Shown here: positions 5,575-64,000 of the stretch, one piece after another | Layout: every line of letters begins with the position of its first letter | How positions within the stretch are numbered: the stretch's first letter is position 1 | Assembly (NCBI GenBank): GCA_013359125.1 | Contig: JABWCR010000014.1 | Location: 3,431 to 67,430, forward strand | Source of the DNA: Armatimonadota bacterium | GTDB lineage: Bacteria > Armatimonadota > Fimbriimonadia > Fimbriimonadales > GBS-DC | DNA: 64,000 nucleotides | Direction: 5' to 3' | Position numbers and translations under genes: made by a program | Notes under the pieces: generated by a model | Database searches by the model: none | What the model saw: the letters and a program-made list of their open reading frames with translations, nothing else | Told to the model about the DNA's origin: nothing

Positions 5575-5575
5575 G

Positions 5576-13672: not shown

Positions 13673-13677
13673 GGGCG

Positions 13678-14334: not shown

Positions 14335-14358
14335 CCTTCGGTATAATGGCCTTACCCT

Positions 14359-48362: not shown

Positions 48363-48785
48363 GTGAGGCTCCGCGAATTCGTTAGCGACCACCTAAACAG
48401 CCTTTTCACCGCGCTCAAGGCCTCACAAGCCCCGCCGATCGGAGAGTGTGACGAGGCTCAGTTGAAGGAGTGTCTTCGCAGAGGGCGAGTCCAAACCGGC
48501 ACAGTCCGATATCGGCCTATGGCCGTGCAATTCGAGTTCATTTTTCAAGACCCATCGCTCGGACCGGCCGTGCTTACGGTAACTGTAGAAACCCCGGAAC
48601 CGATCGTCTATATGCCAGTGCCCGATTGGGTTCAAGAAGAGGTCTGGCAAGGCGAGGTGGGCGGTACTTTTCGCTTCAGGAGCGAGGCCGAACAGATGAT
48701 CGAGCAGTTCGCCGCATCGACGCTCAGCACGGATCAGAACGCCGTCTGGTTTGAGGAACGGCAGAGGGCCAAAAGGCGCGAATGA
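48363..48785 (+). CDS. Hypothetical small protein
   Basis: The ORF ends in an ATGA overlap with the M16 peptidase gene, suggesting translational coupling. The start is inferred from the -10 spacing. No motif recognised. Confidence 0.45.
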   Translation: MRLREFVSDHLNSLFTALKASQAPPIGECDEAQLKECLRRGRVQTGTVRYRPMAVQFEFIFQDPSLGPAVLTVTVETPEPIVYMPVPDWVQEEVWQGEVGGTFRFRSEAEQMIEQFAASTLSTDQNAVWFEERQRAKRRE

Positions 48786-50080
48786 CGCTGTACGATTCTA
48801 AGTACCGCCTTAAGTTCGAGCAGGGCGAGCTTCCCAACGGTTTGCGCTTTGTGTTTGCGCCCGACGACGGCGCCCCGGTCGCAGCCTCTGTGCTTCTCTA
48901 TGATGTCGGCGCTCGAAACGAAGACCCGGGCAAGACGGGGTTTGCCCACCTGTTCGAGCATATGATGTTCCAAGGCTCTGCGAACGTGCCGCGCGAGATG
49001 CACTTTAAGCATGTAGAGGCGAACGGAGGCGTTTGCAACGCCTTCACCTCCTTTGATGTAACCGTCTACTTTGAATTGATGCCGTCGTCTAAGTTGCCGT
49101 TGGCGCTCTGGCTAGAGGCGGATCGGATGCAGTCGCTCGACCTGAGTCAACAGAACTTGGACAATCAGCGGGCTGTTGTCAAGGAGGAGCGCCGCCTAGC
49201 GGTAGACAACAAGCCTTACGCCCCTGCCAGAGAGCGACTGCGCGAAATCGCTTACGATTCCTTTGCCAATCAGCATTCGATCATTGGCTACATGGAAGAC
49301 ATCGACCGCGCAAGCCTCAGCGAGTTTCAGGAGTTCTTTCGAACGTATTATGCGCCGAACAATGCGCTGCTTGTGGTAGCGGGAAGCTTTGACCCTCGGG
49401 ATGCAATGAAGCTGATCGAAGAGCTCTTCGGCGGCGCTTCCAGACGGCCAGACCCGCGGCCGCCCGATGTCAACGAGTCTAATAGGAGCGCCGAGCGCAG
49501 AGAGACGATCCATGATCCCTTGGCTAACGTGCCGGGATTGGCCGTCGCATGGAAGGCGCCCGACCGCTCGCATCCCGACGCCGAGGCACTCTCGATGGCG
49601 GCAGAGATACTGTTCGGCGGATCGGCCTCACGGATTTATCAGCGTCTTGTCAAAAAGGACGCACTCGCAGTCAGCGTCTCGGGCTATCTGGAGATGCGGC
49701 GAGGGCCGAGTTTGTTTCACTTCTTTGCGCTTCATCGTCCAGACGTCGATCCCACCGATATAGAACGCGCGGTTTACGATGAGTTTGCCAACTTCGCCCT
49801 CAACGGCCCGAACGATCAGGAGGTCGAGCGGGCACGGGCCAGAGTGCTGGCACAGAGGCTGGGAGGGTTGTCCATTTATGGGTTGCAATCGCCGCTTGGC
49901 AAGGCGCTGGCGCTGGGAGAGGCGGGCCTGTTCGATGGCGATCCGGATCAGGCCAATCTGCGGCTAGACCGAGCCCTGACTTTGACGCCGAGCAGCATGA
50001 AAGAGGCTGTCGCACGGTGGTTGATCGATGATGGCGAGCGAGCGACGCTGCACATTGGCGCTGGGGAGGGAGGATCGTGA
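48782..50080 (+). CDS. M16-family zinc peptidase (pitrilysin-like), catalytic subunit
   Basis: The inverted zinc motif HLFEHMMFQGS (HxxEH). Confidence 0.9.
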   Translation: MTLYDSKYRLKFEQGELPNGLRFVFAPDDGAPVAASVLLYDVGARNEDPGKTGFAHLFEHMMFQGSANVPREMHFKHVEANGGVCNAFTSFDVTVYFELMPSSKLPLALWLEADRMQSLDLSQQNLDNQRAVVKEERRLAVDNKPYAPARERLREIAYDSFANQHSIIGYMEDIDRASLSEFQEFFRTYYAPNNALLVVAGSFDPRDAMKLIEELFGGASRRPDPRPPDVNESNRSAERRETIHDPLANVPGLAVAWKAPDRSHPDAEALSMAAEILFGGSASRIYQRLVKKDALAVSVSGYLEMRRGPSLFHFFALHRPDVDPTDIERAVYDEFANFALNGPNDQEVERARARVLAQRLGGLSIYGLQSPLGKALALGEAGLFDGDPDQANLRLDRALTLTPSSMKEAVARWLIDDGERATLHIGAGEGGS

Positions 50081-51372
50081 GCGCCTTTCCGACTTCGCCT
50101 CCGCCCGACTTAGAATCCAAGGCGTTCGTACTGCCGGAGCCGATCAACATGGCTCTATCGGGCGGCACAAGGCTTAAGTTCGTGCGGAACGAGCAGGCGC
50201 CCATGATCATCTTGCGCGTCATCGTCCGCTCTGCGGCAGAGCATTGCGCCGAACCGTTCGGGCTAGCGGCTGCGGTCGCACGGCTGATCGCATCGGGCAC
50301 TAGCGGCAAGTCGAGCTTTGAGATCGCCGACGAGGCTAATCGATATGGCGGCGGCGTCAGCGCCTCCGCATCGAGCGATTACGCCGTTCTGTCCATTAGT
50401 TGTCTCAGCGCCTACTTGGATCCCATGATGAAGTTGGCCGGGGAAGTCCTCAGCAATTCGAATTACCCCGAGAACGAGGTCGAGATCGACCGTGCGAACT
50501 TGATCCAAAGGCTGCGCGCGCAACGAGCCGAGCCAGGCTTTCTGGCTGCAGAGAAATATGCCCAAGCAGCCTATCCAGGACATCCTTATAGCATGGTCTC
50601 GCCTTCCGAAGAGGACGTCCTCCAATGGACGGCAGAACAGATGCGCGAGGCACGGCAAGCGCTTTTCCGTTCGGGCGCCTCTAATGCGATCATCGTTGCC
50701 GTTGGCGATGCAGAGCCTGAGAATCTAAAGGCCGCGATCGAGCGCCATTGGTCAAACTGGTTAGCGAGCACGACAGAACCAGAAGATTTCATCCAACCCA
50801 TGCTGCCCAACGAATCTGGCGAGATTTGGGTTCAGAGGCCGCGATCCGCTCAGTGCAATCTCAGAATCGGCTGCCGCGCGCCGACGCGCACCGACGACGA
50901 GTTCACCCCGCTCAACATAGCAACGGTCGTGCTTGGAGGTTCCGCCAGCTCTCGCCTCTTTCTGAACGTCCGAGAAGATCTCGGCTACGCCTATCACGTT
51001 GGCGCCCGTTTGAGCACGCGCCTCAAAGCCGGTTCAATGATCGTCGAGGCCGAAACGGCCCAAGAGAACGTCCGCCATGCTATCCAAGAGATTCATCGCG
51101 AAATCAATCGTATGGCAAACGACGGGCCGACCGAACAAGAACTCTCGACCATCAAGGCCTATATGACCGGACAGTTGGCCATGCGCTGGATCACCCAGGG
51201 CGGGATCGCCGACACGCTTTTGGTCAGCGAAGCCTTTGGTCTGCCCGACGACTATTGGCAGACGCAACCCGAACGAATTCGGCAGACAACGGCCGAACAA
51301 GCCCGCCAAGCCTTTGCCAATCGCCTCGATCTAGATCGCTTAATCACCGTCGGCGTAGGCGAATCGCTGTGA
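50077..51372 (+). CDS. M16-family peptidase, non-catalytic partner (no HxxEH)
   Basis: Same length and domain layout as the upstream M16 gene, with a GTGA start/stop overlap, but the zinc motif is absent. Confidence 0.85.
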   Translation: MSAFPTSPPPDLESKAFVLPEPINMALSGGTRLKFVRNEQAPMIILRVIVRSAAEHCAEPFGLAAAVARLIASGTSGKSSFEIADEANRYGGGVSASASSDYAVLSISCLSAYLDPMMKLAGEVLSNSNYPENEVEIDRANLIQRLRAQRAEPGFLAAEKYAQAAYPGHPYSMVSPSEEDVLQWTAEQMREARQALFRSGASNAIIVAVGDAEPENLKAAIERHWSNWLASTTEPEDFIQPMLPNESGEIWVQRPRSAQCNLRIGCRAPTRTDDEFTPLNIATVVLGGSASSRLFLNVREDLGYAYHVGARLSTRLKAGSMIVEAETAQENVRHAIQEIHREINRMANDGPTEQELSTIKAYMTGQLAMRWITQGGIADTLLVSEAFGLPDDYWQTQPERIRQTTAEQARQAFANRLDLDRLITVGVGESL

Positions 51373-51446: not shown

Positions 51447-52286
51447 ATGCCTGCCTTACCGCTTGCCAGGGGGTATAGCGCTTTGAAAAAGGGATTTACA
51501 CTGACCGAACTGTTAGTCGTGATCGCCATCATCTCCATCCTCGCGGCGATCATCTTTCCGGTCTTTAGTTCTGTAAGGGAAAACGCTCGACGAACCACCT
51601 GCGCTTCCAATCTGAACCAAATCTACGTCGCCTTTGAAACGTACCGCCTGGACTATGGCGGCCAAGCGCCGCCCGCGCTGTTCGGTTACGTCTTGGGCCA
51701 AGGCAACAGTTGCGCGGTTCAAGCGCCCAACATGGACCAGCTTCCCAACAACGAGTTTCTGCGCCACTACCTCAAGAACAGCGCGATCTTTCAGTGCCCC
51801 AATAATCCAACGAACGATCGGGGTCTGCTGGGCACGGCAGTCTATCCCGCAGGACATGCTTTGGCGGGGCAGACCGTTAGAGAAGACCCCTTTGACAACA
51901 GCAGCCCGGTCAAGTGCTTCTATCAAGCCAATTCGTACGACACAGGCCGACGTTTGGACACCAGCCAACTCGAGTTGCGATATACGCTCTTTTGGTCTAA
52001 CGAGGCCCTCAACGGGGTCGAAAACCAACTGAACGGCGGCACGACCACCTATGGCCTGGGCTATTACGATCCGCCGGTCGGCGGCAAGCCCAGCGATACG
52101 CCAAGGCAATTGGGTTATCGTAAGAAAGAGCCTAGCGCTGTGATCACATGGTGCACCCACCATCGAAAGTTCACCAATTCGCAAGTCAACAAAGGCAAGG
52201 ACGATCTGGTCCTCTTTGCGAGCGGCAACGTTGCTCGATTCGACTCCGCGACCCTGACGGACAATCCTTATAATAGGCGGCCCTAA
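51447..52286 (+). CDS. Prepilin-type N-terminal cleavage/methylation domain protein (DUF1559-like small pilin)
   Basis: KKG|FTLTELLVVIAIISILAAIIFPVF is a class III signal with Glu5. The part of the listed ORF upstream of 51447 overlaps the M16 gene and is discarded. An alternative start is the TTG at 51483 (giving MKKGFTL). Confidence 0.85.
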   Translation: MPALPLARGYSALKKGFTLTELLVVIAIISILAAIIFPVFSSVRENARRTTCASNLNQIYVAFETYRLDYGGQAPPALFGYVLGQGNSCAVQAPNMDQLPNNEFLRHYLKNSAIFQCPNNPTNDRGLLGTAVYPAGHALAGQTVREDPFDNSSPVKCFYQANSYDTGRRLDTSQLELRYTLFWSNEALNGVENQLNGGTTTYGLGYYDPPVGGKPSDTPRQLGYRKKEPSAVITWCTHHRKFTNSQVNKGKDDLVLFASGNVARFDSATLTDNPYNRRP

Positions 52287-52462: not shown

Positions 52463-53299
52463 ATGAAAAAAGGGTTTACCTTGACAGAACTTTTGGTCGT
52501 TGTTTTTATCGTAACCGTGCTCGCGGCCATCATCTTTCCTGTTGCGGCCTCTGTTCGCGAGCGCGCTCGACGAAGCTCCACCCTGTCCAACCTTCAACAG
52601 ATCTACATCGCCATCCAGCAGTACAAACTGGACGAGCAGGCTTTTCCGCCCGCGCTCTTCAACTACATCGTCGATACTAACGGCGTCGGCTGCGGCAACA
52701 TTGCGGCGCCCCCCATCGATCATGTGGATACAACGGGGTTCTTAAAGCCCTATCTAAGATCGACCGAGGTGTTCCATTCGCTCAACAGTCCATACGACGA
52801 TCGGCGCATTTTGACCGAGGTCTACTACCCGCAAGGGCATGCATTGGCGGGTCGCATGGTGCGGGTCGACCCCTTGGATAATTCGAGCCCGCCTCTTTGC
52901 TACTACCGTTACGACAGCATGAACATCGGGCACAATCCGGGCGCCAGCCGCTTTGAACTGCGATATAGCCTTTTCTGGAGCAACAGCGCGCTCAATCAAA
53001 CGGAGAATAGACTCGGAGGCGACCCGAACGGCGCCCAACCGTATGGCGACGGCTTTTGGGACGCGCCGGTCGGCATGAAGCGCACCGACACGCCGCGCCA
53101 ATTGGGCTACAAAAACCCCGATGACTCCACCGTTATCACCTGGTGCAGTTATCACCGAACTTATAGCGGCGGTACGCCTAACTTGGGCAGAGACGACTTA
53201 GCGCTGTTCTTGAACGGCACAGCCAAATCCGTGAGCACGCGGGATGCCGCCGTTAACAGCATAGACATGTTCAACGCGCCTTACAACGTCCGACCGTAA
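52463..53299 (+). CDS. Prepilin-type N-terminal cleavage/methylation domain protein, tandem paralog
   Basis: MKKG|FTLTELLVVVFIVTVLAAIIFPVA. It is collinear with the upstream paralog along its whole length (RYSLFWSN.ALN..EN.L, VITWC..HR). Confidence 0.85.
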   Translation: MKKGFTLTELLVVVFIVTVLAAIIFPVAASVRERARRSSTLSNLQQIYIAIQQYKLDEQAFPPALFNYIVDTNGVGCGNIAAPPIDHVDTTGFLKPYLRSTEVFHSLNSPYDDRRILTEVYYPQGHALAGRMVRVDPLDNSSPPLCYYRYDSMNIGHNPGASRFELRYSLFWSNSALNQTENRLGGDPNGAQPYGDGFWDAPVGMKRTDTPRQLGYKNPDDSTVITWCSYHRTYSGGTPNLGRDDLALFLNGTAKSVSTRDAAVNSIDMFNAPYNVRP

Positions 53300-53331: not shown

Positions 53332-55128
53332 ATGAAGCATCGAAGCGCAGAACGAGGAACCACGCTGATCGAAATTCTCGTGGTCATCGTCATCTTGCTG
53401 GTCGGAATCTTCGCGTTCGTTCGCCTTTTGCCCACTGGCTTCTTCATACTTCAGCAGTCTGGCGAAGCAGGAAACGCAGGACGCTTGGCTCAGAGCGAAC
53501 TGGAGAGACTAAAGGCCCAGCCCCAGAACTTAGCCTCTGCAATTCTCCCTGTTAAGTTCGAACAGGACGCTCAGGGCAACTGGGGACAGGTCATCGATAT
53601 GGACGCCGAGCCGGACCGCATGGTTTTCGACGACTCCTATCTGCCCGCCTATTACAGGCAGTACGCGACGGGCGCAAATCGATTTCGAGCCATTCGAGGC
53701 GAGCGCGTCAACGTGCCCCTGCCCGGACCGACAAACGTTGGACTGGGCTGCGTCTACATGACTTCGTTCGCGCCCATCGTCGAGGACCCGCCAAGCGCGA
53801 TCAGCTCCAATCTGTTGCTCTACTCGGATCCGATGCGGCGCAACGTGATGGAGTACGACACCTCTCGATTTCCTCGGTTGAGGCCGTTTGAGTACGGTAT
53901 CGATTACGACGAGGCCAAAATACTCTTGCGTCCCCGAGCCGACTTCGCCGTATCGTACAAAATCGACTTTGCCTTCTATCAGCAGGTCAACGGAGCGGTT
54001 ACCGTCGTCTTCTCACAGCAGACGGCTCTCTTAAATCCTACGGGCAATCCGAGAATCACAGCGGTTTGGGGCGATCTGGAGTACAACGGCCAGCCGGTTG
54101 CCACCGTCCCAGGCTTTATCGGCATCGTCCCCGATAGCGATGTGGCCGCAAGGCTGTTCGATCGATTGGGCAACTTTACGGCTTGGGCTGCGGACTATCC
54201 CTACCAATACAAAGTGGTCAACCACGCCTTGGGACTTGTTATCATGAATCCGGCGGCGTCCGGCTACTACGAGCGGTACGGCAATGGGCTAAGACCCCTC
54301 AGAGCCAATGTCGATTACATCGTGCGAGACTGGCGGATTATTCGCGAAGATCGCCAAGTGCCCAACCGCCGCATCGTCAAGCTCACTTTCAGCAATGTCA
54401 AGAAGAGCGGCGACCTGCAGAACGACCAGACGACTTACGCCGGCCTAGCCATTACGCCGGACGGCCAACTGATCAGCGGCACCGAGGACGTGCTGATCAT
54501 CAACACCGAGGACGGCGGCGTGGCCAAGTCGGGCTATCAGGTCGACTATCGAACGGGCGAAGTGCGCTTTGATCAGAACGTCGATTTTGTTCGCGTTCGA
54601 TTCGATAATAACACTCTTCAAAGGATGTTCGAGCCTTATACGGCAGATCTGAACGCGCAAACGCTTACTCTACGATTTCTTTATCGAGTGGAGAACGACT
54701 GGGCGATGTCTGCGCAGAAATCGACCGAGAGTTTTACTCCATCCTATTCGCCCGCGATCAACTTCGATCAGTGTTACATCAGCGACAGTTCGCCGCAACT
54801 GTTCTTTAGGCTTTGCGAAGCGGGCAAGACGGTCGTGCTGAGAGAGTATTTCTATCGGGACGACAAGGGCAACATCCATAGGGCGGCCAATGGAATCTTT
54901 AAGATCACGAACAATCCCGCCCTCTACCAGACCAACGGCGCCATTCGGCTAGCGCCCCTCGATCTGAGAGAGAGACATCCCAATGCGGTCGCTTGGGCGC
55001 CGGAACCGACAGGACTGCCGGTGCGCGGCGTGCAGGGCGTCTCTCTGCGAGTGCGCATGAGTTGGCAGCCGCCAGGACAACGAATCAAAAGACAAGATTT
55101 CGATACTTTGCTGGTTCGAGAGCAGTAA
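53332..55128 (+). CDS. Very large pseudopilin-like protein (598 aa) with a class III signal
   Basis: ERG|TTLIEILVVIVILLVGIFAF (Gly-1, Glu5). SD AGAGGAG. Confidence 0.8.
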   Translation: MKHRSAERGTTLIEILVVIVILLVGIFAFVRLLPTGFFILQQSGEAGNAGRLAQSELERLKAQPQNLASAILPVKFEQDAQGNWGQVIDMDAEPDRMVFDDSYLPAYYRQYATGANRFRAIRGERVNVPLPGPTNVGLGCVYMTSFAPIVEDPPSAISSNLLLYSDPMRRNVMEYDTSRFPRLRPFEYGIDYDEAKILLRPRADFAVSYKIDFAFYQQVNGAVTVVFSQQTALLNPTGNPRITAVWGDLEYNGQPVATVPGFIGIVPDSDVAARLFDRLGNFTAWAADYPYQYKVVNHALGLVIMNPAASGYYERYGNGLRPLRANVDYIVRDWRIIREDRQVPNRRIVKLTFSNVKKSGDLQNDQTTYAGLAITPDGQLISGTEDVLIINTEDGGVAKSGYQVDYRTGEVRFDQNVDFVRVRFDNNTLQRMFEPYTADLNAQTLTLRFLYRVENDWAMSAQKSTESFTPSYSPAINFDQCYISDSSPQLFFRLCEAGKTVVLREYFYRDDKGNIHRAANGIFKITNNPALYQTNGAIRLAPLDLRERHPNAVAWAPEPTGLPVRGVQGVSLRVRMSWQPPGQRIKRQDFDTLLVREQ

Positions 55129-55162
55129 CCCGCGCCGGAACATCCAGCGGGTAGAAGAGGTC

Positions 55163-57022
55163 ATGAATAAGGAGCGATCGATGCGGAGCGTCAACAAATG
55201 GAGAGCCGGGTTCACCTTGGTAGAACTGCTGGTGGTCATTGCGATCACCGCCATTCTGCTGGGCCTGCTGTTAGGCCCGCTGGTTACCGGCTTCAATCTG
55301 ACGCGCAAGAGCCAAGCCGTCATCCAGGCGCAAAACTCCGCCCGTTTGGCCATGGAGACGGTCGAGCGCGAGCTTCGCAGCGCAGCCTATATCTTTGACA
55401 ACTTCGACCGTCGTCTTAGAATTTGGGCGCGAGACGGCGCCGGAAACATGGTCTACAGCGACGAGCCTTTCTGCATTATCGACCTTGCGCCGCCAGCGCG
55501 AGGCAACCCGGTCGCGCCCTCTAACGATCCCACGACCGACGTGCCGACCGGCGAGATCAATCTTCCGCTGGCCGCCGGCCGCGTGATGGTGCGCTACTTT
55601 ATCGGCCTGCAGGACAACCGCTCGGCGATGAACAATGGCGTCTGGATGCCCGTCCGAGGCTATGTCAACGGCTTTGAAAGCAACTTCGTCGCCGCCGGAC
55701 AAGACGACAACCTCTACCTCTTGTATCGAGCCGAGTTTCCAATCTATCGCGAGGACGGCTCGCTGAACACCGACCTTTTTGTGGACGCCGATAACGACAA
55801 CATACCGGACGACTTCGACGATCCGAACTTTTTCTACGGTCCGAATTGGCAGAACTGGCAGCGCGTCGCCCAACCGGTAGTCGCCGCTCAACGAGCCGAC
55901 ATGATCACGCTCAAAGTCGATCCTAACGGTGCCATCACCGAGTTCAATCCGCTCATGCAGTTCAGGCCGGTCGAGGTCAAAGGCCAGACGGCCGCGCCGA
56001 TCTCGGACAATTCGCTGAGCGACGAAATGGGCGATCAGGCCGCGCCGACCCAGTTCCGACTGCCGCACGGCTCCTGGGCCAACAAATTTGATATGGCGAT
56101 CTATCGAAGTTCGCCCGACGCCAACCCGGCAGCCAACCAGACTCGCGAGCTTTTCTACACCTCGCGCGAGCCGAACGGCTGGATGCTCTATCACTGGATT
56201 CAGCCTGCAGGCGCGCCTAACGGCACAGCCGAGCGAGTCGCTAACCTCACTGAGTTCAAAAGATGGTTTTTGGGCGGGCCGACGCCGACCATGCCGCCTA
56301 ATCTTTGGAACCAGATGGACGTTTCCACCACTCAAGAGCCGACCATCTTCTTGGTGGACGAAGGCAATGGGATGCTCCAGTTCGACATTCCCTCATGGCT
56401 CTTCGCACCGAACGGATTTGTCTACGACACGGACGTTATCAACCAGCGATATGTCGATGCGATCGCGCTGGATCCCGACAACGCGCCCAACATTCGCCGG
56501 TTCGTCAGCCTGATCGATTCCGACGATAACGGAACGATCGACAACCCAAGAGGCAACAACCGAAACCCGGTCGCCTACTACAGCGCCGGGGTCGTACCCG
56601 GCTCGGAACTCGTGATCGGGCCGGATCAGAGCGCAGGACCGCACTTTGGCCGACCCATCCGCTACACTCGAGTTGCCTACAATTCGATGTCGGTCGGGCC
56701 CAACCAGTATCGCGTTCGATATCAAGATTTGATCACCAATGCGGCCGCGCCCGAGTTCAACCAGCCGAGATTTCGTCGCGGCTACATCGAATTTACCAGC
56801 GACCCGGCCACGCCGTTGCCATCGGGAGAGATCGTTGTAACGTTCTCCTTTCAGCTCAATCGAAAGAGCGACACGGTCGTCGTGGACTATGTTACTCGAC
56901 AAGCCCTCAACGTCTCGATGTCGATCAAGGTGTACGACCCCGGCTCGGGCGACGCTATGTACTATGCCCTCAACACCAACATCGAACAGCCGAATCTGAT
57001 CCGAATCATGGGAGAGAGATAG
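55163..57022 (+). CDS. Very large PilW/GspJ-like pseudopilin (about 613-619 aa)
   Basis: RAG|FTLVELLVVIAITAILLGLL followed by ARLAMETVERELRSA. The ATG at 55181 has a better SD (AAGGAG) than the one at 55163. Confidence 0.8.
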   Translation: MNKERSMRSVNKWRAGFTLVELLVVIAITAILLGLLLGPLVTGFNLTRKSQAVIQAQNSARLAMETVERELRSAAYIFDNFDRRLRIWARDGAGNMVYSDEPFCIIDLAPPARGNPVAPSNDPTTDVPTGEINLPLAAGRVMVRYFIGLQDNRSAMNNGVWMPVRGYVNGFESNFVAAGQDDNLYLLYRAEFPIYREDGSLNTDLFVDADNDNIPDDFDDPNFFYGPNWQNWQRVAQPVVAAQRADMITLKVDPNGAITEFNPLMQFRPVEVKGQTAAPISDNSLSDEMGDQAAPTQFRLPHGSWANKFDMAIYRSSPDANPAANQTRELFYTSREPNGWMLYHWIQPAGAPNGTAERVANLTEFKRWFLGGPTPTMPPNLWNQMDVSTTQEPTIFLVDEGNGMLQFDIPSWLFAPNGFVYDTDVINQRYVDAIALDPDNAPNIRRFVSLIDSDDNGTIDNPRGNNRNPVAYYSAGVVPGSELVIGPDQSAGPHFGRPIRYTRVAYNSMSVGPNQYRVRYQDLITNAAAPEFNQPRFRRGYIEFTSDPATPLPSGEIVVTFSFQLNRKSDTVVVDYVTRQALNVSMSIKVYDPGSGDAMYYALNTNIEQPNLIRIMGER

Positions 57023-57023
57023 G

Positions 57024-59702
57024 ATGAACCGGGTTTACCCAAGACGGGCAAAACAAGACGGCACGACGCTCATTATCGCGCTGCTGGTAATCGTTATCAT
57101 GGCTTCGCTGGGCGCCGTGTTCATCAGCCTCATCTCCAGGAACATCCGCTTTGCGGAGCGCGGGCGCGAAAGCCTGACCGAGCAGTACTTTGCCGAGGCA
57201 GGCATCCGATTTGCCGTCAATCAGCTTTCCCACAGCGAAGAGGGCGCCGATTGGCGACCTCAGCCGGACAACCTGGATATGACGCAACCCCTCATCGCTC
57301 GAGATCCCGATGCGCCTTTCTTGATGCCATATTCCCAGGCCGATCAATTTGATAACAATGGCGTCCGGGTCAGCGGACCTTCGGGCGGCTTTACGCGAAT
57401 CGCTTTTGGAAAGGGACGATCGCTGGTGCGAGTCAGCTACCAGCCTCAACTGAACGATCCGTTCTCTCACATGATCAAGATCGAATCGGTGGGACGAGTG
57501 GGCGAAGTCGATGCGAACGATCCGACGACCTTCATCAACGACGGACCGCTCAAGAGGCGCGTGCTGGTCGCATATGTCCAAATCGGCCTTGCCGACTATC
57601 TGCGCTTTGTCATGAACCATGATCGAAGAGCCACGCCGACCGAAGTCGGCGCGGACGAAATCGGCCTGGTCGATCCCCAGAACGCCGCGCAGAGCATCAC
57701 TCCGACCATCGTCTATGGTCTGCCTCAGGCTGCCGGCGCTGGATGGGGCGGCGCGCCCATGCGTTTCAACACCGACGTTCGCTTCCGCGGCAACGTTCAG
57801 ATGTTCGTCAACCCGGATTTTGAGCGCGTAGAGGTTGCCGGCAGCATCGACGTGCCGGGGTTGGCGGCCAATGGCACGCCGTCGGTAACGCTTAACGGCG
57901 TTCCCGTTTATCCCAGCAACCGACAACAGTTCAGCACGCACAACGGCCTTATCCGCGATGCCAGCGCGCGCGTCGATCCTTTCGGCTATCCGCGCAGCGC
58001 CGCCTACCTCGAACCGCCCCGCATGGACGTGGTGGACCCGGCCAGCGGGCAGAACCGTTACATCGCCCTCACCCGCGCATCGGGCCGGTGGCGGCAAGAC
58101 TTTGGCGGCAACTGGTACAACACCGGCCGAGACGGATACGGCCGTGGCATCTACATCAACAACACGGGCGACATCCAGCAAGAGAGCGGCAGTTTGGTCG
58201 GCGGCTATAGCATGCGATCGGACTGGCTCAATCCAGGCCGAAGTCCCTTCTGGAACGGCGCGTTCTACACGCCGCCGGGAGCCTATGTCGAACTGATCGA
58301 TCGAGCCGACGTCAATCCGTTGCGAGCCAAGTTCGGAATGGTCGTTACGCGAAATCAATCCAACAACAACGACACTTGGAGAGAGCCCGTATCGGGCAGG
58401 CGAACAAACATCAAGACCCTTGGCTTCTGGTTCCGAGCGCCCAACGACCGGTTCGATCCGCGCATCTACAACGATTTCACGCGCAACCAGCCGAACCAGG
58501 ATGTCGAGTTCAATGGCGTCATCTATCTCGAAGGCAATGTGCGAATCCGAGGCACGATCCCGCGCGGTCGGCAGATCACGATCGTAACCAACGGCACGGC
58601 CTACATAGAAGGGAACCTTTTAAAGGGCGACGCCTTCTCGTCGCTGGCTATCATCGCCAAGGACCATGTCTGCCTGAACACGACCCAGTTCCTTTCGAAA
58701 CTCCCAAGCGGACCTGCGGTCGCTGTAACCGATCCGTTGGACAGCGATGCACCGTTCCACTTTTCGACCGATGCCAATACGCCGCTCGACCTCAGTTTCT
58801 CATTCGGCGTCGATCCGACGACATACGACACCTTTAACACTTACGGCGTTCGGTATCTTACCAGGCACTCCGGCGCTTCCGTCGCTTCATTGATCAACCT
58901 ACTGATCAATCCTGGCGTGGACAACAGCCCGCTCAACGATTTTTATCTGTTCAACCTGCCCAACTTTGCGCCGAACCTCTATGTGCTGCAGAATCAGGCC
59001 AGTCAGATTTATCCGCGCTACGAGCGAGGCGGCATCAACCTGCTTCCGCCGACCAACAACTACGCGATATACGTCCAGCCAGGTTGGGAGAACCTCCTAA
59101 GGTTTCAACTGGACCCGACGGTTAGCGCGCCTTCTGGCAATCAGAACTACTTCTTTAGCACGGGCGCCGTGGTGCCGAACGATTGGGTCGTCCAAGCGGC
59201 CCTCTATGCCCAGAACGGCAGTTTCTTCGTTATCCCAGGCTATTGGCACAACACCAACACGGACGACACTCGCGCCAACTTTGCCGCTCGGGGCACGAGG
59301 CCGCTGGGGGTCTTGTCGCCAGACGTTCCGTTCTACGGCGAACCCTTGGACATTAAGATCACGATCGAAGGCGCGATCGCAGAGAACACAGCGGCTTCGT
59401 TGCACGACCAGAGCGAATGGCTCAAACGATGGGGATGGATTCCGCTGACCTATGGCAATTCCGGACAAGAGATTCCGTCCACTCACCAACAGTTTATGCA
59501 TCACGCCGATTACGCGGCCAATCTCTTTATGCGGTACGACCGCACTTGGCGCAGGCCGTTCAGCAACACTGTTACGCCCGAACCGTTGAGGATCGCGAAT
59601 TTTCCAGATCCGTCGGGCACGCATCCCGGTCGGCTTTTGCCGGCTGCGCCTAAACTGCCTGTCTGCCCCAAGCCTGTTTATGTAGGAGAGGATAGAAGAT
59701 GA
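57024..59702 (+). CDS. Very large PilX/GspK-like pseudopilin (892 aa) lacking Glu5
   Basis: QDG|TTLIIALLVIVIMASLGAVFISL has Ile at +5. It is followed by the PilX_N/GspK-like AEAGIRFAVNQL. It begins 1 nt after the upstream stop. Confidence 0.8.
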   Translation: MNRVYPRRAKQDGTTLIIALLVIVIMASLGAVFISLISRNIRFAERGRESLTEQYFAEAGIRFAVNQLSHSEEGADWRPQPDNLDMTQPLIARDPDAPFLMPYSQADQFDNNGVRVSGPSGGFTRIAFGKGRSLVRVSYQPQLNDPFSHMIKIESVGRVGEVDANDPTTFINDGPLKRRVLVAYVQIGLADYLRFVMNHDRRATPTEVGADEIGLVDPQNAAQSITPTIVYGLPQAAGAGWGGAPMRFNTDVRFRGNVQMFVNPDFERVEVAGSIDVPGLAANGTPSVTLNGVPVYPSNRQQFSTHNGLIRDASARVDPFGYPRSAAYLEPPRMDVVDPASGQNRYIALTRASGRWRQDFGGNWYNTGRDGYGRGIYINNTGDIQQESGSLVGGYSMRSDWLNPGRSPFWNGAFYTPPGAYVELIDRADVNPLRAKFGMVVTRNQSNNNDTWREPVSGRRTNIKTLGFWFRAPNDRFDPRIYNDFTRNQPNQDVEFNGVIYLEGNVRIRGTIPRGRQITIVTNGTAYIEGNLLKGDAFSSLAIIAKDHVCLNTTQFLSKLPSGPAVAVTDPLDSDAPFHFSTDANTPLDLSFSFGVDPTTYDTFNTYGVRYLTRHSGASVASLINLLINPGVDNSPLNDFYLFNLPNFAPNLYVLQNQASQIYPRYERGGINLLPPTNNYAIYVQPGWENLLRFQLDPTVSAPSGNQNYFFSTGAVVPNDWVVQAALYAQNGSFFVIPGYWHNTNTDDTRANFAARGTRPLGVLSPDVPFYGEPLDIKITIEGAIAENTAASLHDQSEWLKRWGWIPLTYGNSGQEIPSTHQQFMHHADYAANLFMRYDRTWRRPFSNTVTPEPLRIANFPDPSGTHPGRLLPAAPKLPVCPKPVYVGEDRR

Positions 59703-62700
59703 AAACCAAGCGATTTGACCGATTGATCAAGGGCGGCTTGGCCGCCTTAGCCATTTTCAGCGCTGCTCAAACGGCGATCGCCGATGGGCGCGGATACGGG
59801 CCTCGGAGAGCCGAGATCAATGCCGCGGTCGTGGTCCTCTCCAACCAGCCCGACGATCCCAATATCGCGCCGGGCGCGGACGACAGCCGAGACTGGTACG
59901 CCTTTTTCGCCCTCGATTCGCGCACCGACCTCAAACCGCCTGGCTGGGAGTTCTTGAATCCTTACGCTCCTGCTGATACCGGCAAGCGGTCTGCACGCTA
60001 TTGGAAGGTTCGACTGAGCCAACTGAGCGACAACCAACTGATGCGCTACAACGTGCTGTTGCTGTCGGCGGCGCCGGCCTCGTTCCGTATGAGCCTAAGC
60101 GATCGGGACAAACTTCGACGCTTTGTCGATGCGGGCGGCGTGCTTTGGGTCGAGATCCCTGCGGGATGGAACAGGGGGCAGAACATCTTCTTCCCAGACG
60201 TTCGCAATACAATATCCGCCGGGGGGGCAGCTGGCATCTTTGCTATCGACCACCCCATGCTCCGAGGTTACTACACGCTCAATCCGACAGAAGCGCTCAA
60301 CCTTGGCGTTATCAGAACCTCCGCGTTTACTCTGTCGGTCAGCGAACTGATACCCGTCATCGGCACTTCGACCAACCAGAATATGCTGGCGTCGGGAATG
60401 TACGGAAGCGGACGGATCGTGGTGAGTTCGATTGGCATCGCGCAGTCGCTCAGTCAGCCCTTTGGGTCTGGTCCGGCGGCGCTCGCATCGGCCGTAAAGT
60501 TGGTTCCACCCAAGGATCTCAAGCTGATTTACAATGCTGTCCGTTGGGCCGGCTCCACCTCGACGCCCAGCAAAGATTTTCGAAGGTCCAACCATGCGTT
60601 CGATCGATACGGTGCCCCGATGGCCAACAAATGGCAGGCGGCAGGCATCAATCCAGTTGCAACGCCCACCATTCACAAAGGATTTGTCTATATTGCCGAC
60701 GGCGGTCGTCTCATGTGTTTTGACGGTTTCCCCCGCAGGGATGCCGACCTGGACGGCAGCAGCGACGACGGCATACCCGATCTGTTTCGCAATCCGCCCA
60801 TTCCGGGACGTACCTACGACCAGGTTTGGGAAGCTCGGTTAAGCGGCGGCCAATCGAGCAGTCCGGTCGTCGTCCAGGTCGCGCGGCAACAGCCCGGCGG
60901 CCAAGTAACGCCCGAAGACTTAGTGATCGTGGTCGGCGATTCCGACATACGCGCCTACCGCGCCGTGCCGAGATTGCCAAACGGACGCATCAGCCCGGTT
61001 GGAGAATTGGCATGGACCGTCAACTGGGGCGATTTTGGCGGAGCCCCGCTCTCGCCGGCCCGGCTGCCTAACGGCGAGACCGTCGGAGCGCTCTATGCCG
61101 ACGGCCTGATCATGATCCCGTGCGAATCTTCCAGCGGCGGCAACAACCATGCGGGCATGGTCGCGATCTGGGGGCCGACCGGACAGACGATGTACAGTTT
61201 CGATCGCAATCAGCCAGGCGTGCCGATCCCGTGGGTACAGCCCAACCCGCGAAGCGTCGTTCCGGTCAGCACGTGGAAGGCGCATCCTGCCATGGGATGG
61301 GTGCCTAACACCAGCCAGGGCGGCGGGGTCGATCTGGTCGCCTATCTGCCGGGCGAACAGCAGTTCGGCCAGGGCCAAACCGTAACCCAGCCGACCGTGT
61401 TTGCGTTTTGGGTGGGCGCAAGAGGAGAACTTTTGCAACAAGAGGCGGTCGGCTCTGGGCTGTTCTCTACTCGCCTCACTCGCGTCTCGGGCGCGGATAT
61501 GTTCATCATTAACAACCAGTCCAACCCCGGTTGGGAATTGAGACCTCGCGTCTATGCGGAAAACCGGCTGACGAGCACAGTGGTCGAAGTGCCTGACACG
61601 GCGCTGAACTTTGCGCAGGGCAACGGCCGCGTGCAGATCGATCCGACTTGGGATCCGGCCATCTACAACCTCTACATCGACTACTTCCTCGATTGGAAAG
61701 CCGTCGTCCAAACGGCGCTTTTCCGAACCTTTATGACCTTGGCCTCGGCCAGTGCTGCCGGACAGAACCCGTATGCCAACGAGATCGCGGGCGTAACCCT
61801 GGCCCCCGATGGCACGCTGTTCGTCGCCTCCCACGCTACCGATGCCACTGCGCCGCTAAGCAATGGCAACGTCTTCGCCGTCGAAGAGCGCTTTAGCGAC
61901 GGACGCACGAGCGGCACTCGCGTGCTATGGCGCTGGCAAGCCCACGGCGGATACACGCAAATCGTAGCCGGTCAGGTAACCGGCATTCCGGCCTCGCTCA
62001 ACTGGATGGACACCAGCCTTCCGTTCTTTAATCAGTGGATCAACAGCGGTTTGATGGATTTTGGCGAACCCGGAAACAACCAAGACAACGATCAGATGCA
62101 CGTTCGATTTACCCATCCGCCGGTCTACGCGAACGGCGTGCTGTACCTGGTGGGAGAAGGGCGCGTGCGCTTCTTTGGGTTCCCAGTCGGCTACAGTGTG
62201 CTGATGGCGCTCGACGCCAATCCGAATCAGTTCGAGATTCGCCTGGGCGCGCCGATCACTAGCCCGACCGGCACGATCCTCATCCGACAACTGGATTATG
62301 CTCGCGGCGGCCGAATCAATGGCGCCACCAACACCATCTCGATCAATCCGAACGGGAACGACCGCCGGATCGAGCTGAAAATGGAAGGCGGCGTGATCCG
62401 ATTCAAGTCCTTCGCCGACTACACACAAAGTCGCCCCGACCTGATGAACAACGTGCTCAGCCTGAGCCAGCCGGTCGAGGTCAATATCAGCGGCCAAAGC
62501 TACTTCATCCGGCCAAGCGACCCGCAACTGTCCGGCACTTGGAACAACCTGCTTTGGTATGTCGTTTCTCCAACGGGCACGGCGCAAGGTCCGCCGGTGG
62601 TGATGGGCGATATCGTCTACACGCCGATGAACAACACCTTCTTTGATCCCGGCCAAGGCGGCATCACCACGTTTGGCGGCGTAACCGCCATGAGCGCGAA

Positions 62701-64000
62701 TCCGAAAAGGGAACTGCCCAACCTGACCCGAGGCGGACAGGTGCCTCTGATCGGAGTGGAAGCCATGCTCTGGCCAAGCCTCAAAGATCTGCCCGCCGAT
62801 GCCCAGAACAATCCGGGCGCGTTTCTGCGAGAATTGATCGTGCGCTTCCGCAACAGTTCGATTCTCGGAAGCAACGTGAGGCCTCTCGCCTTCGGCGACG
62901 GATTGCTGATGGCCAGCGGCAGCGAAGGCATGGTGGCCTACGAGCGCGAGTTCACGCTCATTGCCGACAACGGACGAATCATCGAACTGGATACCGAAAG
63001 CACAGTGGCCTGGGCGGCGGAGAACAGCGAACTGCTGACCCAACTCACAGGATCGACCGAGGCCGTCGTCAAAACGCCTATCGGTTCTTCCGCTCGAGTC
63101 TATCGCATCAACCCCAACGAGATGCTGGTGGTCGATTCGACCAACGACCGAGTGATCGTGATGGATCGTAGCGGCAACGAAAGACGAATCATTAAGTCGT
63201 TCGTGCCCGATCGCGCGCCGATCAGAGCGGCTAACGGCAACATCGTCAATTTTGCAACAACCCGAGACGCCAATCGGCCAACCGGATGGGTCGGGGGCGA
63301 TTCGGTTACCCTGCGCTCACCCAGCGATGCGGCCACTTGGACAGAGTTCGTGCCCAATGCCAACAACCCGTTTGCCTACAAGTCGCCAACGGGCCTGGAG
63401 TATTGGGTCCACTATTTGATCGCGGACACGGGCAACTTCCGAATAGTCGATGTGGTCGATCGATATGCGGCCGACGCGACCACCCGCGCCGTGCGAGGAG
63501 TCTTGATCGATCCGAGCACCAATCAGGAGCAGCTAAACATGCTCAACTGGGTCTCGCCCACGTCGACCGACGGCAAAACCTACCGATACGTGGGTGCCAA
63601 TCGATTCCAATACGGCATTCTGAACCCTGGGCAGGCCAACGAGACTCCCGTGTGGGGATTTGCAAGCCTGGTGCAGAACTATCGGGCAGGTGGGACGGCC
63701 GCAACGCCGCAAGATCGCCAATCGCCCGAAGAAGGCATGATCATCCTGCAGATCAACAATGCCGACGGCACGACCAGTCTCAACTATTGCCGCAGGATGC
63801 GCATCCGGCTTCCTGGCCAAGGCGTCGTTGAAAGACCACTGATCAACCCGGTTTCGATCGCGGTTTCTCCGAACGGGCTGGCCGGCAATGTCGGAAATGT
63901 CCAACTTTTCGACATTCGGGTCATGTTCGTCGATGCGACCGGCGTCTACGAGTTGACGCCCAATCCAAACTCCGAAACTTGGGACTGCGTTTGGGCGTTC
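59699..64000 (+). CDS. Giant secreted protein (>1433 aa), PilY1-like by position and beta-propeller-like repeats; 3' end beyond the window
   Basis: My own translation from the ATG at 59699 (ATGA overlap with the upstream stop, GGAGAGGA SD) stays open to nt 64000. Signal peptide MKTKRFDRLIKGGLAALAIFSAAQTAIA. Repeated strand motifs occur, such as GFVYIADGGRLMCFDG, ANGVLYLVGEG and GDIVYTP. It is absent from the ORF track because it has no stop in the window. Confidence 0.8.
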   Translation, partial: MKTKRFDRLIKGGLAALAIFSAAQTAIADGRGYGPRRAEINAAVVVLSNQPDDPNIAPGADDSRDWYAFFALDSRTDLKPPGWEFLNPYAPADTGKRSARYWKVRLSQLSDNQLMRYNVLLLSAAPASFRMSLSDRDKLRRFVDAGGVLWVEIPAGWNRGQNIFFPDVRNTISAGGAAGIFAIDHPMLRGYYTLNPTEALNLGVIRTSAFTLSVSELIPVIGTSTNQNMLASGMYGSGRIVVSSIGIAQSLSQPFGSGPAALASAVKLVPPKDLKLIYNAVRWAGSTSTPSKDFRRSNHAFDRYGAPMANKWQAAGINPVATPTIHKGFVYIADGGRLMCFDGFPRRDADLDGSSDDGIPDLFRNPPIPGRTYDQVWEARLSGGQSSSPVVVQVARQQPGGQVTPEDLVIVVGDSDIRAYRAVPRLPNGRISPVGELAWTVNWGDFGGAPLSPARLPNGETVGALYADGLIMIPCESSSGGNNHAGMVAIWGPTGQTMYSFDRNQPGVPIPWVQPNPRSVVPVSTWKAHPAMGWVPNTSQGGGVDLVAYLPGEQQFGQGQTVTQPTVFAFWVGARGELLQQEAVGSGLFSTRLTRVSGADMFIINNQSNPGWELRPRVYAENRLTSTVVEVPDTALNFAQGNGRVQIDPTWDPAIYNLYIDYFLDWKAVVQTALFRTFMTLASASAAGQNPYANEIAGVTLAPDGTLFVASHATDATAPLSNGNVFAVEERFSDGRTSGTRVLWRWQAHGGYTQIVAGQVTGIPASLNWMDTSLPFFNQWINSGLMDFGEPGNNQDNDQMHVRFTHPPVYANGVLYLVGEGRVRFFGFPVGYSVLMALDANPNQFEIRLGAPITSPTGTILIRQLDYARGGRINGATNTISINPNGNDRRIELKMEGGVIRFKSFADYTQSRPDLMNNVLSLSQPVEVNISGQSYFIRPSDPQLSGTWNNLLWYVVSPTGTAQGPPVVMGDIVYTPMNNTFFDPGQGGITTFGGVTAMSANPKRELPNLTRGGQVPLIGVEAMLWPSLKDLPADAQNNPGAFLRELIVRFRNSSILGSNVRPLAFGDGLLMASGSEGMVAYEREFTLIADNGRIIELDTESTVAWAAENSELLTQLTGSTEAVVKTPIGSSARVYRINPNEMLVVDSTNDRVIVMDRSGNERRIIKSFVPDRAPIRAANGNIVNFATTRDANRPTGWVGGDSVTLRSPSDAATWTEFVPNANNPFAYKSPTGLEYWVHYLIADTGNFRIVDVVDRYAADATTRAVRGVLIDPSTNQEQLNMLNWVSPTSTDGKTYRYVGANRFQYGILNPGQANETPVWGFASLVQNYRAGGTAATPQDRQSPEEGMIILQINNADGTTSLNYCRRMRIRLPGQGVVERPLINPVSIAVSPNGLAGNVGNVQLFDIRVMFVDATGVYELTPNPNSETWDCVWAF

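Follow-up and report, generated by a model that had tools for sequence, protein, structure and literature searches.

Three enlarged pilin-like proteins as putative core minor pilins of a type IVa-like pilus in Armatimonadota

The 64-kb stretch of Armatimonadota DNA analysed here (the window) contains three consecutive genes whose products begin like type IV pilins and are 2 to 5 times larger than the GspI-GspJ-GspK and PilV-PilW-PilX proteins. These genes raise the question of whether such large proteins are subunits of a filament and, if so, of which kind of filament. A first-pass annotation of the locus had read them as an enlarged tip or priming complex of an uncharacterised type IV filament.

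Gene content of the locus and conservation of the N-termini

Genes C (53332..55128, 598 aa), D (55163..57022, 619 aa) and E (57024..59702, 892 aa), all on the forward strand, are real genes and tightly coupled: the three reading frames are present in the ORF list where the first-pass annotation had placed them, and the spacing is as it described, with 34 nt between C and D, 1 nt between D and E and a 4-nt overlap between E and gene F. This overlap is ATGA (59699-59702), and F is translationally coupled to E. The class III-type starts described earlier are likewise present, i.e. MKHRSAERG/TTLIE in C, the first of the trio in the PilV/GspI position, ...KWRAG/FTLVE in D, the middle gene in the PilW/GspJ position, and ...AKQDG/TTLII in E, the last gene in the PilX/GspK position (the slash precedes position +1), as are the motifs ARLAMETVERELRSA in D and AEAGIRFAVNQL in E.

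Directly upstream of C lie two pilin genes that the first-pass annotation omitted: A (51447..52286, forward strand, 279 aa, leader ALKKG/FTLTE) and its paralog B (52463..53299, forward strand, 278 aa, leader MKKG/FTLTE), which ends 32 nt upstream of C and shares 50% identity with A (BLASTP, E 2e-93). Both exceed the cut-offs of N_methyl (A 30.9 and B 25.4 bits, cut-off 21.2) and TIGR02532 (35.1 and 27.3 bits, cut-off 16.3), and the N-terminus of A also matches GspG (E 8.8e-12) and the N-terminal segment of DUF1559. Every related locus that extends far enough upstream has one or two pilins of this type ahead of C, and gene A is a candidate for the major pilin or pseudopilin of the filament. A fourth minor pilin of the GspH/FimU type was not identified, unless A or B fills this role.

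A six-frame pattern search found only five class III-like signals in the whole window, one at the beginning of each of the consecutive genes A to E. Together with the conservation of the N-termini across relatives, this suggests that the pattern is more than chance. In the C family, Gly-1 and Glu+5 are both invariant (48/48 each); in the D family, position -1 is Gly or Ala, and Phe+1 and Glu+5 are found in all 54 relatives; in the E family, Gly-1 is present in 82 of 84 relatives, and position +5 is Ile, Val, Leu or Met in 89/89 and Glu in none. The lack of Glu5 originally noticed in E is therefore a property of the whole family, while C and D keep this residue.

Downstream, gene F (59699..64000, forward strand, cut by the window end) encodes a large protein with the Sec-type signal MKTKRFDRLIKGGLAALAIFSAAQTAIA. 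That F runs past the window end had been omitted earlier. Its frame is open for 1433 codons and the full protein is thus longer than 1433 aa; in L087, a strain that is 97% identical at the DNA level, F has 1561 aa and is followed by gene G, which encodes 2084 aa with a Golvesin_C domain and a PQQ-like propeller. F follows E in all loci that extend that far. DUF4159 matches the window protein weakly and one ortholog (L004) above the cut-off (32.8 vs 25.9 bits). At its extreme C-terminus F carries Y-x-L-x-x-P-x-x-A-D-R-x-F, which is shared by most of 61 orthologs and varies in those that are more divergent.

Linkage to pilus assembly genes and the kind of filament

Relatives of E are found in 307 species genomes, and apart from a few odd or unclassified bins these all carry the label Armatimonadota. 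All 80 species-level loci examined have the collinear order pilin-C-D-E-F, and in 40 of these 80 loci pilB-pilT-pilC-pilD lies directly upstream of it. The absence of assembly machinery from the window holds, since Pfam scans of 30 other large ORFs found housekeeping genes only, and adjacent assembly genes are also missing from the loci of the closest relatives. The first-pass annotation did not include the assembly genes that adjoin this gene set in many relatives, and it had named a complete lack of linkage between the orthologs and pilus machinery as evidence against its own reading; with 40 linked loci, such a lack is not observed.

In the related operons, the first ATPase scores 654 bits with PilB and 613 bits with GspE, and this PilB carries the c-di-GMP-binding MshEN motif. 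The second ATPase, encoded between pilB and pilC, passes the PilT/PilU family cut-off (519 vs 319 bits), the platform protein is best matched by type IV pilus PilC models and is also matched by GspF, and an A24 peptidase is encoded as well. Fimbriae are present on Fimbriimonas ginsengisoli, whose genome has genes for PilB, C, D, Q, M and T (PMC4072686). Because pilB-pilT-pilC-pilD lies directly upstream in 40 loci, we suggest that the system is type IVa-pilus-like, and that Armatimonadota likely use C, D and E as the three core minor pilins, i.e. the putative starter/tip complex, of a retractile pilus of this kind. The synteny thus supports the part of the original interpretation that invoked an enlarged tip or priming complex; the part that called the filament uncharacterised is not supported, as the gene set includes the retraction ATPase PilT and looks like that of a type IVa pilus.

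Alternatively, C, D and E could cap a short periplasmic pseudopilus that, as in type II secretion, expels F, G or other cargo without forming a surface pilus. GspG is the best match for the N-termini of A and B (E 6e-12 to 9e-12), the GspE score of the first ATPase nearly equals its PilB score, the platform protein has its GspF match, and F and G, very large proteins with Sec signals, are fixed in the same operon; moreover, type II secretion systems have been described in Armatimonadetes after reassignment by Denise et al. (PMC6668835). We nevertheless regard this reading as unlikely, given that the platform protein is matched best by PilC models, that GspC, GspL, GspM and secretin genes were not seen in the adjacent 10 kb of related loci, that Fimbriimonas bears fimbriae and that PilT/PilU scores well above its cut-off between pilB and pilC. 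We know of no classical type II secretion system that includes PilT.

Family membership and predicted structure of C, D and E

The PilV/W/X (GspI/J/K) labels given at first are supported by gene order and N-termini and not at the level of family membership, as none of the curated GspI/J/K and PilV/W/X models was passed, all being far below cut-off with alignments confined to the N-terminal helix. For C and D, the labels PilV and PilW rest solely on gene order and N-terminal sequence. Below threshold, the best matches come in the order expected. For C, whose relatives (n=137) have about 580-670 aa, the best NCBIfam match is PilV TIGR02523 (residues 8-69, E 4.9e-6, 27.1 bits, below the cut-off of 52.2), and 45 of 49 family members match N_methyl and no other model. 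D (185 relatives) exceeds the cut-offs of N_methyl (26 bits) and TIGR02532 (23.4 bits), and its N-terminus matches HpsC best among NCBIfam models (E 8.6e-8, 32 bits vs a cut-off of 200), with further matches to Verru_Chthon cassette C (E 2e-6) and GspJ. E matches GspK over residues 11-74 only (15.9 bits vs a cut-off of 130). Consistent with the initial remark that no domains could be named in the extra mass, Pfam and NCBIfam match nothing beyond the first ~75 residues of C, D and E, and the three families have only the N-terminal helix in common with each other.

Profile searches against PDB sequences returned pilin N-termini only for C and D and nothing for E. The AF2 model of D (pLDDT 83.4) has a helix of 55 residues (19-73) followed by antiparallel beta strands, and Foldseek found no neighbour for it in the PDB (best E 0.016). 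In the model of E (pLDDT 92.2, pTM 0.91), a helix of 57 residues (14-70) is followed by a small sheet (antiparallel strands, 115-185), which supports the first-pass reading, and then by a beta-rich mass that is in part beta-solenoid-like and in part jelly-roll-like, with the last strand at 886-889. A C-terminal motif is conserved among relatives of E, with L872, P873, P876 and P879 invariant. Foldseek matches E to carbohydrate-binding modules (CBMs) and jelly-roll domains (E about 3e-4) and to a phage depolymerase (tailspike-like) beta-helix; neither D nor E has GspJ-like or GspK-like neighbours, and the sole pilin among the PDB matches of E is ComZ (6qvi), with a weak score (E 4e-3, probability 0.23, TM about 0.12-0.19 over about 600 columns). 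E is a candidate tip cap that carries beta-solenoid-like and jelly-roll-like modules, and by analogy with ComZ, GspK and CpaL its conserved last strand probably folds back to join the pilin sheet in cis.

That C, D and E are envelope proteins outside any filament, in which the pilin-like helix is reused as an anchor or export signal, has a model in pilin-like proteins that serve as regulators or anchored enzymes. No similarity to pilins is detectable in their globular parts, passage through a secretin is difficult to square with their size, and the dozens of PulG-like genes in Armatimonadota, 79 in F. ginsengisoli (PMC4072686), cannot all encode filament subunits. This reading is improbable, however, as the Gly-1/Glu+5 pattern is invariant in C and D (with Gly or Ala at -1 in D) and Glu5 is strictly absent from the last gene alone, which fits filament assembly and not mere anchoring, as the gene order is fixed downstream of pilB-pilT-pilC-pilD-pilin, and as E weakly resembles the tip pilin ComZ.

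An accessory role in polysaccharide secretion or gliding as for the giant PilX-like HpsA and the pseudopilins HpsB-D of cyanobacteria, which with the pilus motor export or track extracellular polysaccharide, would accommodate the HpsC match of D, the CBM-like and beta-helix-like modules of E, the Golvesin_C and propeller domains of G and the proposal that the giant PilX-class pilins PilX-EPS/HpsA bind self-laid polysaccharide (10.64898/2026.02.12.705559), but is very improbable given that E does not match the HpsA model, that D is far below the HpsC cut-off and that genes for glycosyltransferases or polysaccharide export are absent from the flanks of the block, both in the window and in the inspected loci, and it would be a functional specialisation of the tip-complex reading rather than a true alternative to it.

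A putative tip complex and its relation to known pilins

Combining these data, we suggest a scheme in which (i) a prepilin peptidase encoded elsewhere in the genome would cut after Gly-1, (ii) the N-terminal helices would seat C, D and E in the inner membrane, (iii) the three proteins would form a trimer on the PilC platform with E, lacking Glu5, in the topmost cap position, (iv) the trimer would prime polymerisation of A/B pilin below it, and (v) the trimer would be carried to the filament tip, where the extra 400-700 residues per subunit would be displayed for binding. F is a candidate tip-associated adhesin or PilY1/MshQ analogue, and F and G are probably tip-associated or secreted adhesins. 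In type IV filaments the last strand is given in cis or in trans (PMC13533445), and F, through its conserved C-terminal peptide, could dock in trans in the manner of PilY1 or MshQ. If the tip reading is true, about 230 kDa of C, D and E and about 170 kDa of F would need to pass the outer-membrane channel, which counts against it.

Three genes in I-J-K order that are translationally coupled, Glu5 in the first two and not in the last, a large non-pilin Sec protein immediately downstream in the PilY1/MshQ position and the linkage to pilB-pilT-pilC-pilD in relatives are all shared with the GspI-GspJ-GspK and PilV-PilW-PilX tip complexes of type II secretion systems and type IVa pili; apart from their size, C, D and E differ from these in the HMM scores far below cut-off, in the lack of Foldseek matches to solved GspJ and GspK and in the lack of a GspH/FimU-like fourth member. 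PilX-class pilins cap the filament and lack Glu5 (10.64898/2026.02.12.705559), and very large members of this class have precedents. Thermus thermophilus ComZ (PDB 6QVI), the tip pilin of the competence pilus, carries a beta-solenoid insertion ahead of its last pilin strand (PMC6561018). Like E, it is a large pilin-like protein that ends a minor-pilin cluster and is missed by standard pilin detectors; in both, a pilin module at the N-terminus is followed by a bulky beta-rich module ahead of the last strand (for E as modelled), and the filament tip is argued to be the only place where ComZ fits. In contrast to ComZ, with which it shares no sequence similarity and a weak structural score, E is about 60% longer with an additional jelly-roll or CBM-like module, C and D have about 600 aa whereas the ComZ partners PilA1-3 are ordinary-sized, and the DNA binding of ComZ has no sign here.

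The cyanobacterial PilX family, including PilX-EPS/HpsA, has an inserted beta-solenoid in PilX and some members of >1280 aa, and has been put forward as an adhesin that takes the place of the PilY1 tip plug (10.64898/2026.02.12.705559). Its members are also encoded beside PilV-class and PilW-class partners, but these are ordinary-sized by family profiles (HpsB 211 and HpsC 318 positions), and the Armatimonadota operon adds the giant Sec-secreted proteins F and G. Modular pilins are widespread (PMC8179133); in those of Streptococcus sanguinis (PilB/PilC), ETEC (CofB) and Caulobacter (CpaL/TadG), a functional module, commonly lectin-like or a beta-sandwich, is grafted onto the pilin module and presumably lies exposed at the tip (PMC8179133, PMC13533445). 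E has a layout similar to that of CpaL, a very large PilX-class protein without Glu5 in which about 470 residues separate the pilin-like domain at the N-terminus from an essential strand at the extreme C-terminus (PMC13533445). In the systems described so far a single modular subunit is usual, whereas here C, D and E are all enlarged; their extra modules are without database signature, and D has no structural neighbour in the PDB.

The precedents of ComZ, PilX/HpsA and CpaL, together with the type IVa-like nature of the filament, lower the novelty of the system, and we suggest that the pilin set is most likely an enlarged modular version of a known design and not a new kind of machine. In this enlarged version, the beta-solenoid-like and jelly-roll/CBM-like character of the extra mass predicted for E suggests a function in adhesion to glycans or surfaces.

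Signals and family traits of the pilin-like proteins

Three consecutive giant pilin-like genes, here called C, D and E, lie on the forward strand at 53332-55128, 55163-57022 and 57024-59702 and encode proteins of 598, 619 and 892 aa with the N-termini MKHRSAERG/TTLIE, MNKERSMRSVNKWRAG/FTLVE and MNRVYPRRAKQDG/TTLII, respectively (the slash marks the putative class III signal cleavage site). In all three, a short basic leader with Gly at position -1 precedes approximately 20 hydrophobic residues, and the leader end and hydrophobic stretch read ERG/TTLIEILVVIVILLVGIFAF in C, RAG/FTLVELLVVIAITAILLGLL in D and QDG/TTLIIALLVIVIMASLGAVF in E. C and D are separated by 34 nt and D and E by 1 nt, and E shares a 4-nt overlap (ATGA) with gene F (59699-64000, +), which is open to the window end over 1433 codons and starts with a Sec-type signal and not a pilin signal. 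The three ORFs with their coordinates and lengths, their spacing, N-termini and internal motifs are all present as described in the first-pass annotation; in public gene calls, D starts six codons downstream. Spurious high-GC frames are ruled out for C, D and E by full-length orthologs with 30-59% identity.

Two further pilin genes, A (51447-52286, +; 279 aa) and B (52463-53299, +; 278 aa), which the first-pass annotation does not mention, lie directly 5' of C and are paralogs with 50% identity. A six-frame pattern search of the 64 kb found class III-like signals at five sites only, the starts of the consecutive genes A, B, C, D and E. Both A and B start like GspG, have an N-terminal segment of the DUF1559 type and carry an H-x9-DG-like stretch in the C-terminal part; they belong to the PulG-like genes that are hugely expanded in Armatimonadota, with 79 in F. 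ginsengisoli (PMC4072686). Scanning the surroundings of A and B for promoters and terminators gave nothing informative. A pair of M16 zinc peptidase genes (48782-51372, +) is directly 5' of A and is also found in L087, a related locus from another sample; in HR15 (L001), the next relative examined, the genes upstream of the pilin block differ, and the position of the M16 pair beside A is probably incidental. Elsewhere in the window, a 1151-aa ORF with a signal peptide (43296-46751, -) has no Pfam or NCBIfam match and lies in the most GC-rich stretch (64.6% vs ~58%). ORFs at 35528-37135 (+), 5561-7453 (+), 23301-24590 (+) and 11338-12537 (+) have no family match; one of these four, of 535 aa, has a signal peptide and, in its C-terminal part, a stretch resembling dockerin (…DLNGDGIVDDIDLAILLENFG…).

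The residues around the cleavage site are conserved in each of the three families. C-family proteins have Gly at -1 and Glu at +5 in 48/48 cases, with mostly Ala at +1; in the D family, Phe at +1 and Glu at +5 are found in 54/54 and the -1 residue is Gly in 49/54 and Ala in 5/54. The E family has Gly at -1 in 82/84 members and mostly Gln at +1, and position +5 is Ile, Val, Leu or Met in 89/89, never Glu. Absence of Glu5 is the known exception pattern of the GspK and PilX cap subunits. A one-off mutation as the source of the loss in E is ruled out, given that the loss is family-wide.

Full-length relatives (28-59% identity) number over 130 for each of C, D and E; their annotation is that of hypothetical proteins or unspecific pseudopilins, and Pfam recognises nothing in them other than N_methyl. 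In a profile search of 1.8 billion representatives, the E family comprises approximately 1070 clusters at 50% identity, 527 of them with an E-value <= 1e-30; the matches listed are full-length orthologs only, and none of them links the family to HpsA, ComZ or the Verrucomicrobia cassette protein A. A scan with one genome per species found relatives of E in 307 genomes. Taxon-labelled relatives of C, D and E are from Armatimonadota with few exceptions. Of these, a D relative labelled Synechococcus sp. RC10 (P0183) and an E relative in a Sedimentisphaerales MAG (L063) are probably due to contamination with, or misbinning of, Armatimonadota contigs and not to horizontal transfer. A distant C-family member (P0360) has the precomputed Pfam accession PF27067, which is absent from the local Pfam copy; part of the C family may already be included in a Pfam family of very recent date.

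Gene order and linkage to the pil genes

In a sample of 80 species-level loci, the order of one or two A/B-type pilins followed by C, D, E and F is collinear in 80/80, and G, the next gene, often follows. The block is directly 3' of pilB-pilT-pilC-pilD in 40/80 loci, which are from more divergent clades including the Chthonomonadales; the combination of PilB, PilT, PilC and PilD in one cluster that marks a type IVa system is found in 40/80 loci and not in the window. The four pil genes are not adjacent in 16 loci for which 5 kb or more of sequence 5' of the block is available, all from the Fimbriimonadales/HR15 clade nearest the window. Given this adjacency in divergent clades and its absence in the window's own clade, the pil cluster seems to be split in the lineage of the window. 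As had been noticed in the first-pass annotation, the window lacks an assembly ATPase, platform protein and secretin: scans of 30 other large ORFs showed housekeeping genes and none of these three, nor a peptidase; the linkage of orthologs to pilus machinery, which that annotation had proposed as a check, is present in the 40 loci. An A24 prepilin peptidase gene lies two to three genes 5' of C in related operons, and there is none in the window.

In the related locus L004, the first ATPase is PilB-like (654 bits, just below the cut-off of 676) and has a c-di-GMP-binding MshEN motif, the second, a retraction ATPase, matches the PilT/PilU model TIGR01420 with 519 bits vs a cut-off of 319, and the platform protein has its best matches among type IV pilus PilC models, the Thermus-type model giving an E-value of 1e-125; the next gene encodes an A24 prepilin peptidase. 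A rival reading takes the block for a pseudopilus of the type II secretion kind that would export F and G; the N-termini of A and B, which resemble that of GspG, and Denise et al. (PMC6668835) speak for it. The presence of PilT in the operon, however, argues for a retractile type IVa-like pilus over a type II secretion system.

Two giant secreted proteins follow the pilin-like proteins. F is complete in L087 (97% DNA identity), where it spans 11874-16559 and encodes 1561 aa. Its Sec-type signal and its gene position, which is that of PilY1/MshQ, fit a PilY1-like protein. F has no PilY1 propeller domain; its orthologs show weak PQQ and NHL hints plus DUF4159, and the DUF4159 match is weak in the window protein and over the cut-off in a distant ortholog. 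The extreme C-terminus of F (…SGSYQLRMPTSADRPF in L087) has the form Y-x-L-x-x-P-x-x-A-D-R-x-F in the majority of 61 orthologs across the phylum; the more divergent orthologs carry variants of it, and the rest of F diverges more. PilY1, PilC and MshQ have a short docking peptide of a similar kind at their C-termini, and F may likewise dock in trans. G, which lies beyond the window end, is 3' of F in most loci of the Fimbriimonadales clade and in some others, and encodes proteins of 2084-2123 aa (L087, 16633 onward, 2084 aa; L001, 16617-21868) with a Sec signal, Golvesin_C and a PQQ/BamB-like beta-propeller; it is a candidate for a second tip adhesin or for cargo.

Family models and predicted structures

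D scores above the cut-offs for N_methyl (PF07963; 26.0 vs 21.2 bits) and TIGR02532 (23.4 vs 16.3 bits), which supports its placement in the type IV pilin superfamily. C is below the cut-offs (N_methyl 17.5, TIGR02532 13.2 bits), yet N_methyl matches 45/49 members of its family at an E-value <= 0.01. E matches neither model, as expected because Phe1 and Glu5 are absent. On the basis of motif and helix, C and E likely belong to the same superfamily, but their scores are sub-threshold or lacking altogether.

At the level of classes, the first-pass annotation had proposed PilV/W/X and GspI/J/K labels. Gene order, N-termini and the Glu5 pattern fit these labels, but family HMMs and Foldseek do not support them as family memberships. 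E has no Glu5 and is the last gene of the I-J-K trio, the pattern of the GspK/PilX class; the GspK model (NF037980) gives 15.9 bits vs a cut-off of 130, over residues 11-74 only. The window protein E has no Pfam match (T2SSK, PilX_N), PilX_N matches 1/49 relatives (E-value 0.046), and HpsA is absent among its NCBIfam matches at an E-value <= 1. For D, the middle gene position is the sole trait that fits the GspJ/PilW class: GspJ TIGR01711 gives 13 vs 64.85 bits, HpsC 32 vs 200 bits and Verru_Chthon C 27 vs 256.5 bits, all over the N-terminus only. C fits the PilV/GspI class by its first gene position and its N-terminus of the S-L-V-E-V-L-V type; its best match, PilV TIGR02523, gives 27.1 vs 52.2 bits over residues 8-69 only. 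The class labels of C and D are putative and based on gene order and N-terminal sequence. Because HMM and Foldseek searches gave no clear assignment to GspI/J/K, PilV/W/X, ComZ, HpsA or PilY1, we describe the proteins as occupying these roles and not as members of these families.

In C, D and E, Pfam and NCBIfam match nothing beyond the initial ~75 residues, in agreement with the earlier statement that no domain could be named in the extra mass. Profile searches of PDB sequences with the three families recovered pilin N-termini or nothing; for E there was no match at an E-value <= 1, ComZ included. A shared duplicated domain was considered as the source of the extra mass; hhalign between the families aligned the N-terminal helix alone, and this idea was therefore rejected.

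The AF2 model of E (pLDDT 92.2, pTM 0.91) has an N-terminal helix at 14-70 (57 residues), a small strand set at 115-185 and a large beta-rich mass with runs of short strands at ~499-552 and long-stranded sandwiches at ~578-740; the last strand, 886-889, follows a motif in which L872, P873, P876 and P879 are invariant in the family. The AF2 model of D (pLDDT 83.4) has a helix at 19-73 (55 residues) and then strands, and the helix in each of the two models precedes 4-5 strands. Foldseek searches of the PDB with E found the carbohydrate-binding jelly rolls CBM28, Fbs1, CBM61 and CBM6 (E-values ~3e-4 to 2e-2) and a phage capsule depolymerase beta-helix, and BFVD gave tailspike-like and CBM-like matches. 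The match to ComZ (6qvi) is weak (E-value 4e-3, ~600 aligned columns, probability 0.23). Runs of short strands are typical of a solenoid, and those in the model of E are, together with the beta-helix tailspike matches, compatible with such a fold. D has no PDB neighbour, the best match being an unrelated protein at an E-value of 0.016. An Hps-like, polysaccharide-linked role would be a specialisation of the minor pilin model set out below; the sub-threshold HpsC match and the lectin-like folds speak for it, and nothing else does. That C, D and E are anchored envelope proteins merely borrowing a pilin helix is argued against by the invariant Gly-1/Glu+5 pattern and the fixed gene position.

A probable enlarged minor pilin set

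The reading with the best support makes C, D and E the core minor pilins of a type IVa-like pilus in the Armatimonadota, where they would take the places of PilV/GspI, PilW/GspJ and PilX/GspK, each enlarged by lineage-specific modules. Its basis is the signals and the Glu5 pattern, the gene coupling, the invariant order, the pilB-pilT-pilC-pilD-pilin linkage and the long helices in the models. The original proposal of an enlarged tip or priming complex of an uncharacterised filament gains from the synteny with pil genes and needs amending in that the filament looks type IVa-like. We suggest that (i) PilD would cleave the N-termini of C, D and E, (ii) C, D and E would assemble into a trimer on the platform, with E, which lacks Glu5, uppermost, (iii) this trimer would prime polymerisation of A or B, and (iv) the extra modules would be displayed at the tip as adhesins. 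Glycans are possible ligands given the CBM-like and solenoid-like modules of E.

Modular pilins are known to be widespread; more than 1200 such proteins fall into 264 architectures, and the authors of that survey expected many more with unrecognised modules (PMC8179133). Giant Glu5-less pilins of the PilX class are already described in Thermus and cyanobacteria. The layout of E, a putative pilin module, ~700 residues and a conserved last strand, has parallels in ComZ, in which a solenoid is placed before the last pilin strand (PMC6561018), in cyanobacterial PilX (10.64898/2026.02.12.705559), and in CpaL and GspK, which provide their own last strand in cis (PMC13533445). The final strand completing the small pilin sheet can be provided in cis or in trans by a PilY1-like partner (PMC13533445). 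In known systems, it is usually a single subunit that is enlarged (ComZ, HpsA/PilX, CpaL, S. sanguinis PilB), or a PilY1 adhesin is added, whereas in the C/D/E operon the whole I-J-K set is 2-5 fold larger and is followed by two giant secreted proteins. The apparent novelty lies in the enlargement of all three proteins (~230 kDa together) and in their fixed position beside two giant secreted proteins across the phylum; literature searches found no description of an enlarged Armatimonadota trio. A tentative and rather doubtful extension is that the trio acquired its modules independently and that, with F docked through its C-terminal peptide, it forms a tip organelle of at least 400 kDa across the phylum, a size not described elsewhere. 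If true, the D module without a PDB structural neighbour would be part of a lineage-specific tip organelle with F (1561 aa), and such a tip would challenge ideas on passage through, or assembly at, the outer-membrane pilus channel.

Minor-pilin tip complexes decide the start of type IV filament growth and what the filament binds. Hundreds of species in a phylum that has received little study share the arrangement found here, which comprises three sizeable families without a Pfam domain beyond N_methyl, with confident models for E and D. The operon is a natural test of the cargo load that a tip complex can carry through the machine and of the new model of a last beta strand that is contributed either in cis or in trans. 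Its most interesting thread is how a tip as bulky as ~230 kDa would pass the outer membrane. A connection with the fimbriae of Fimbriimonas and with habitats rich in polysaccharide is plausible and would provide a molecular handle on adhesion in the Armatimonadota.
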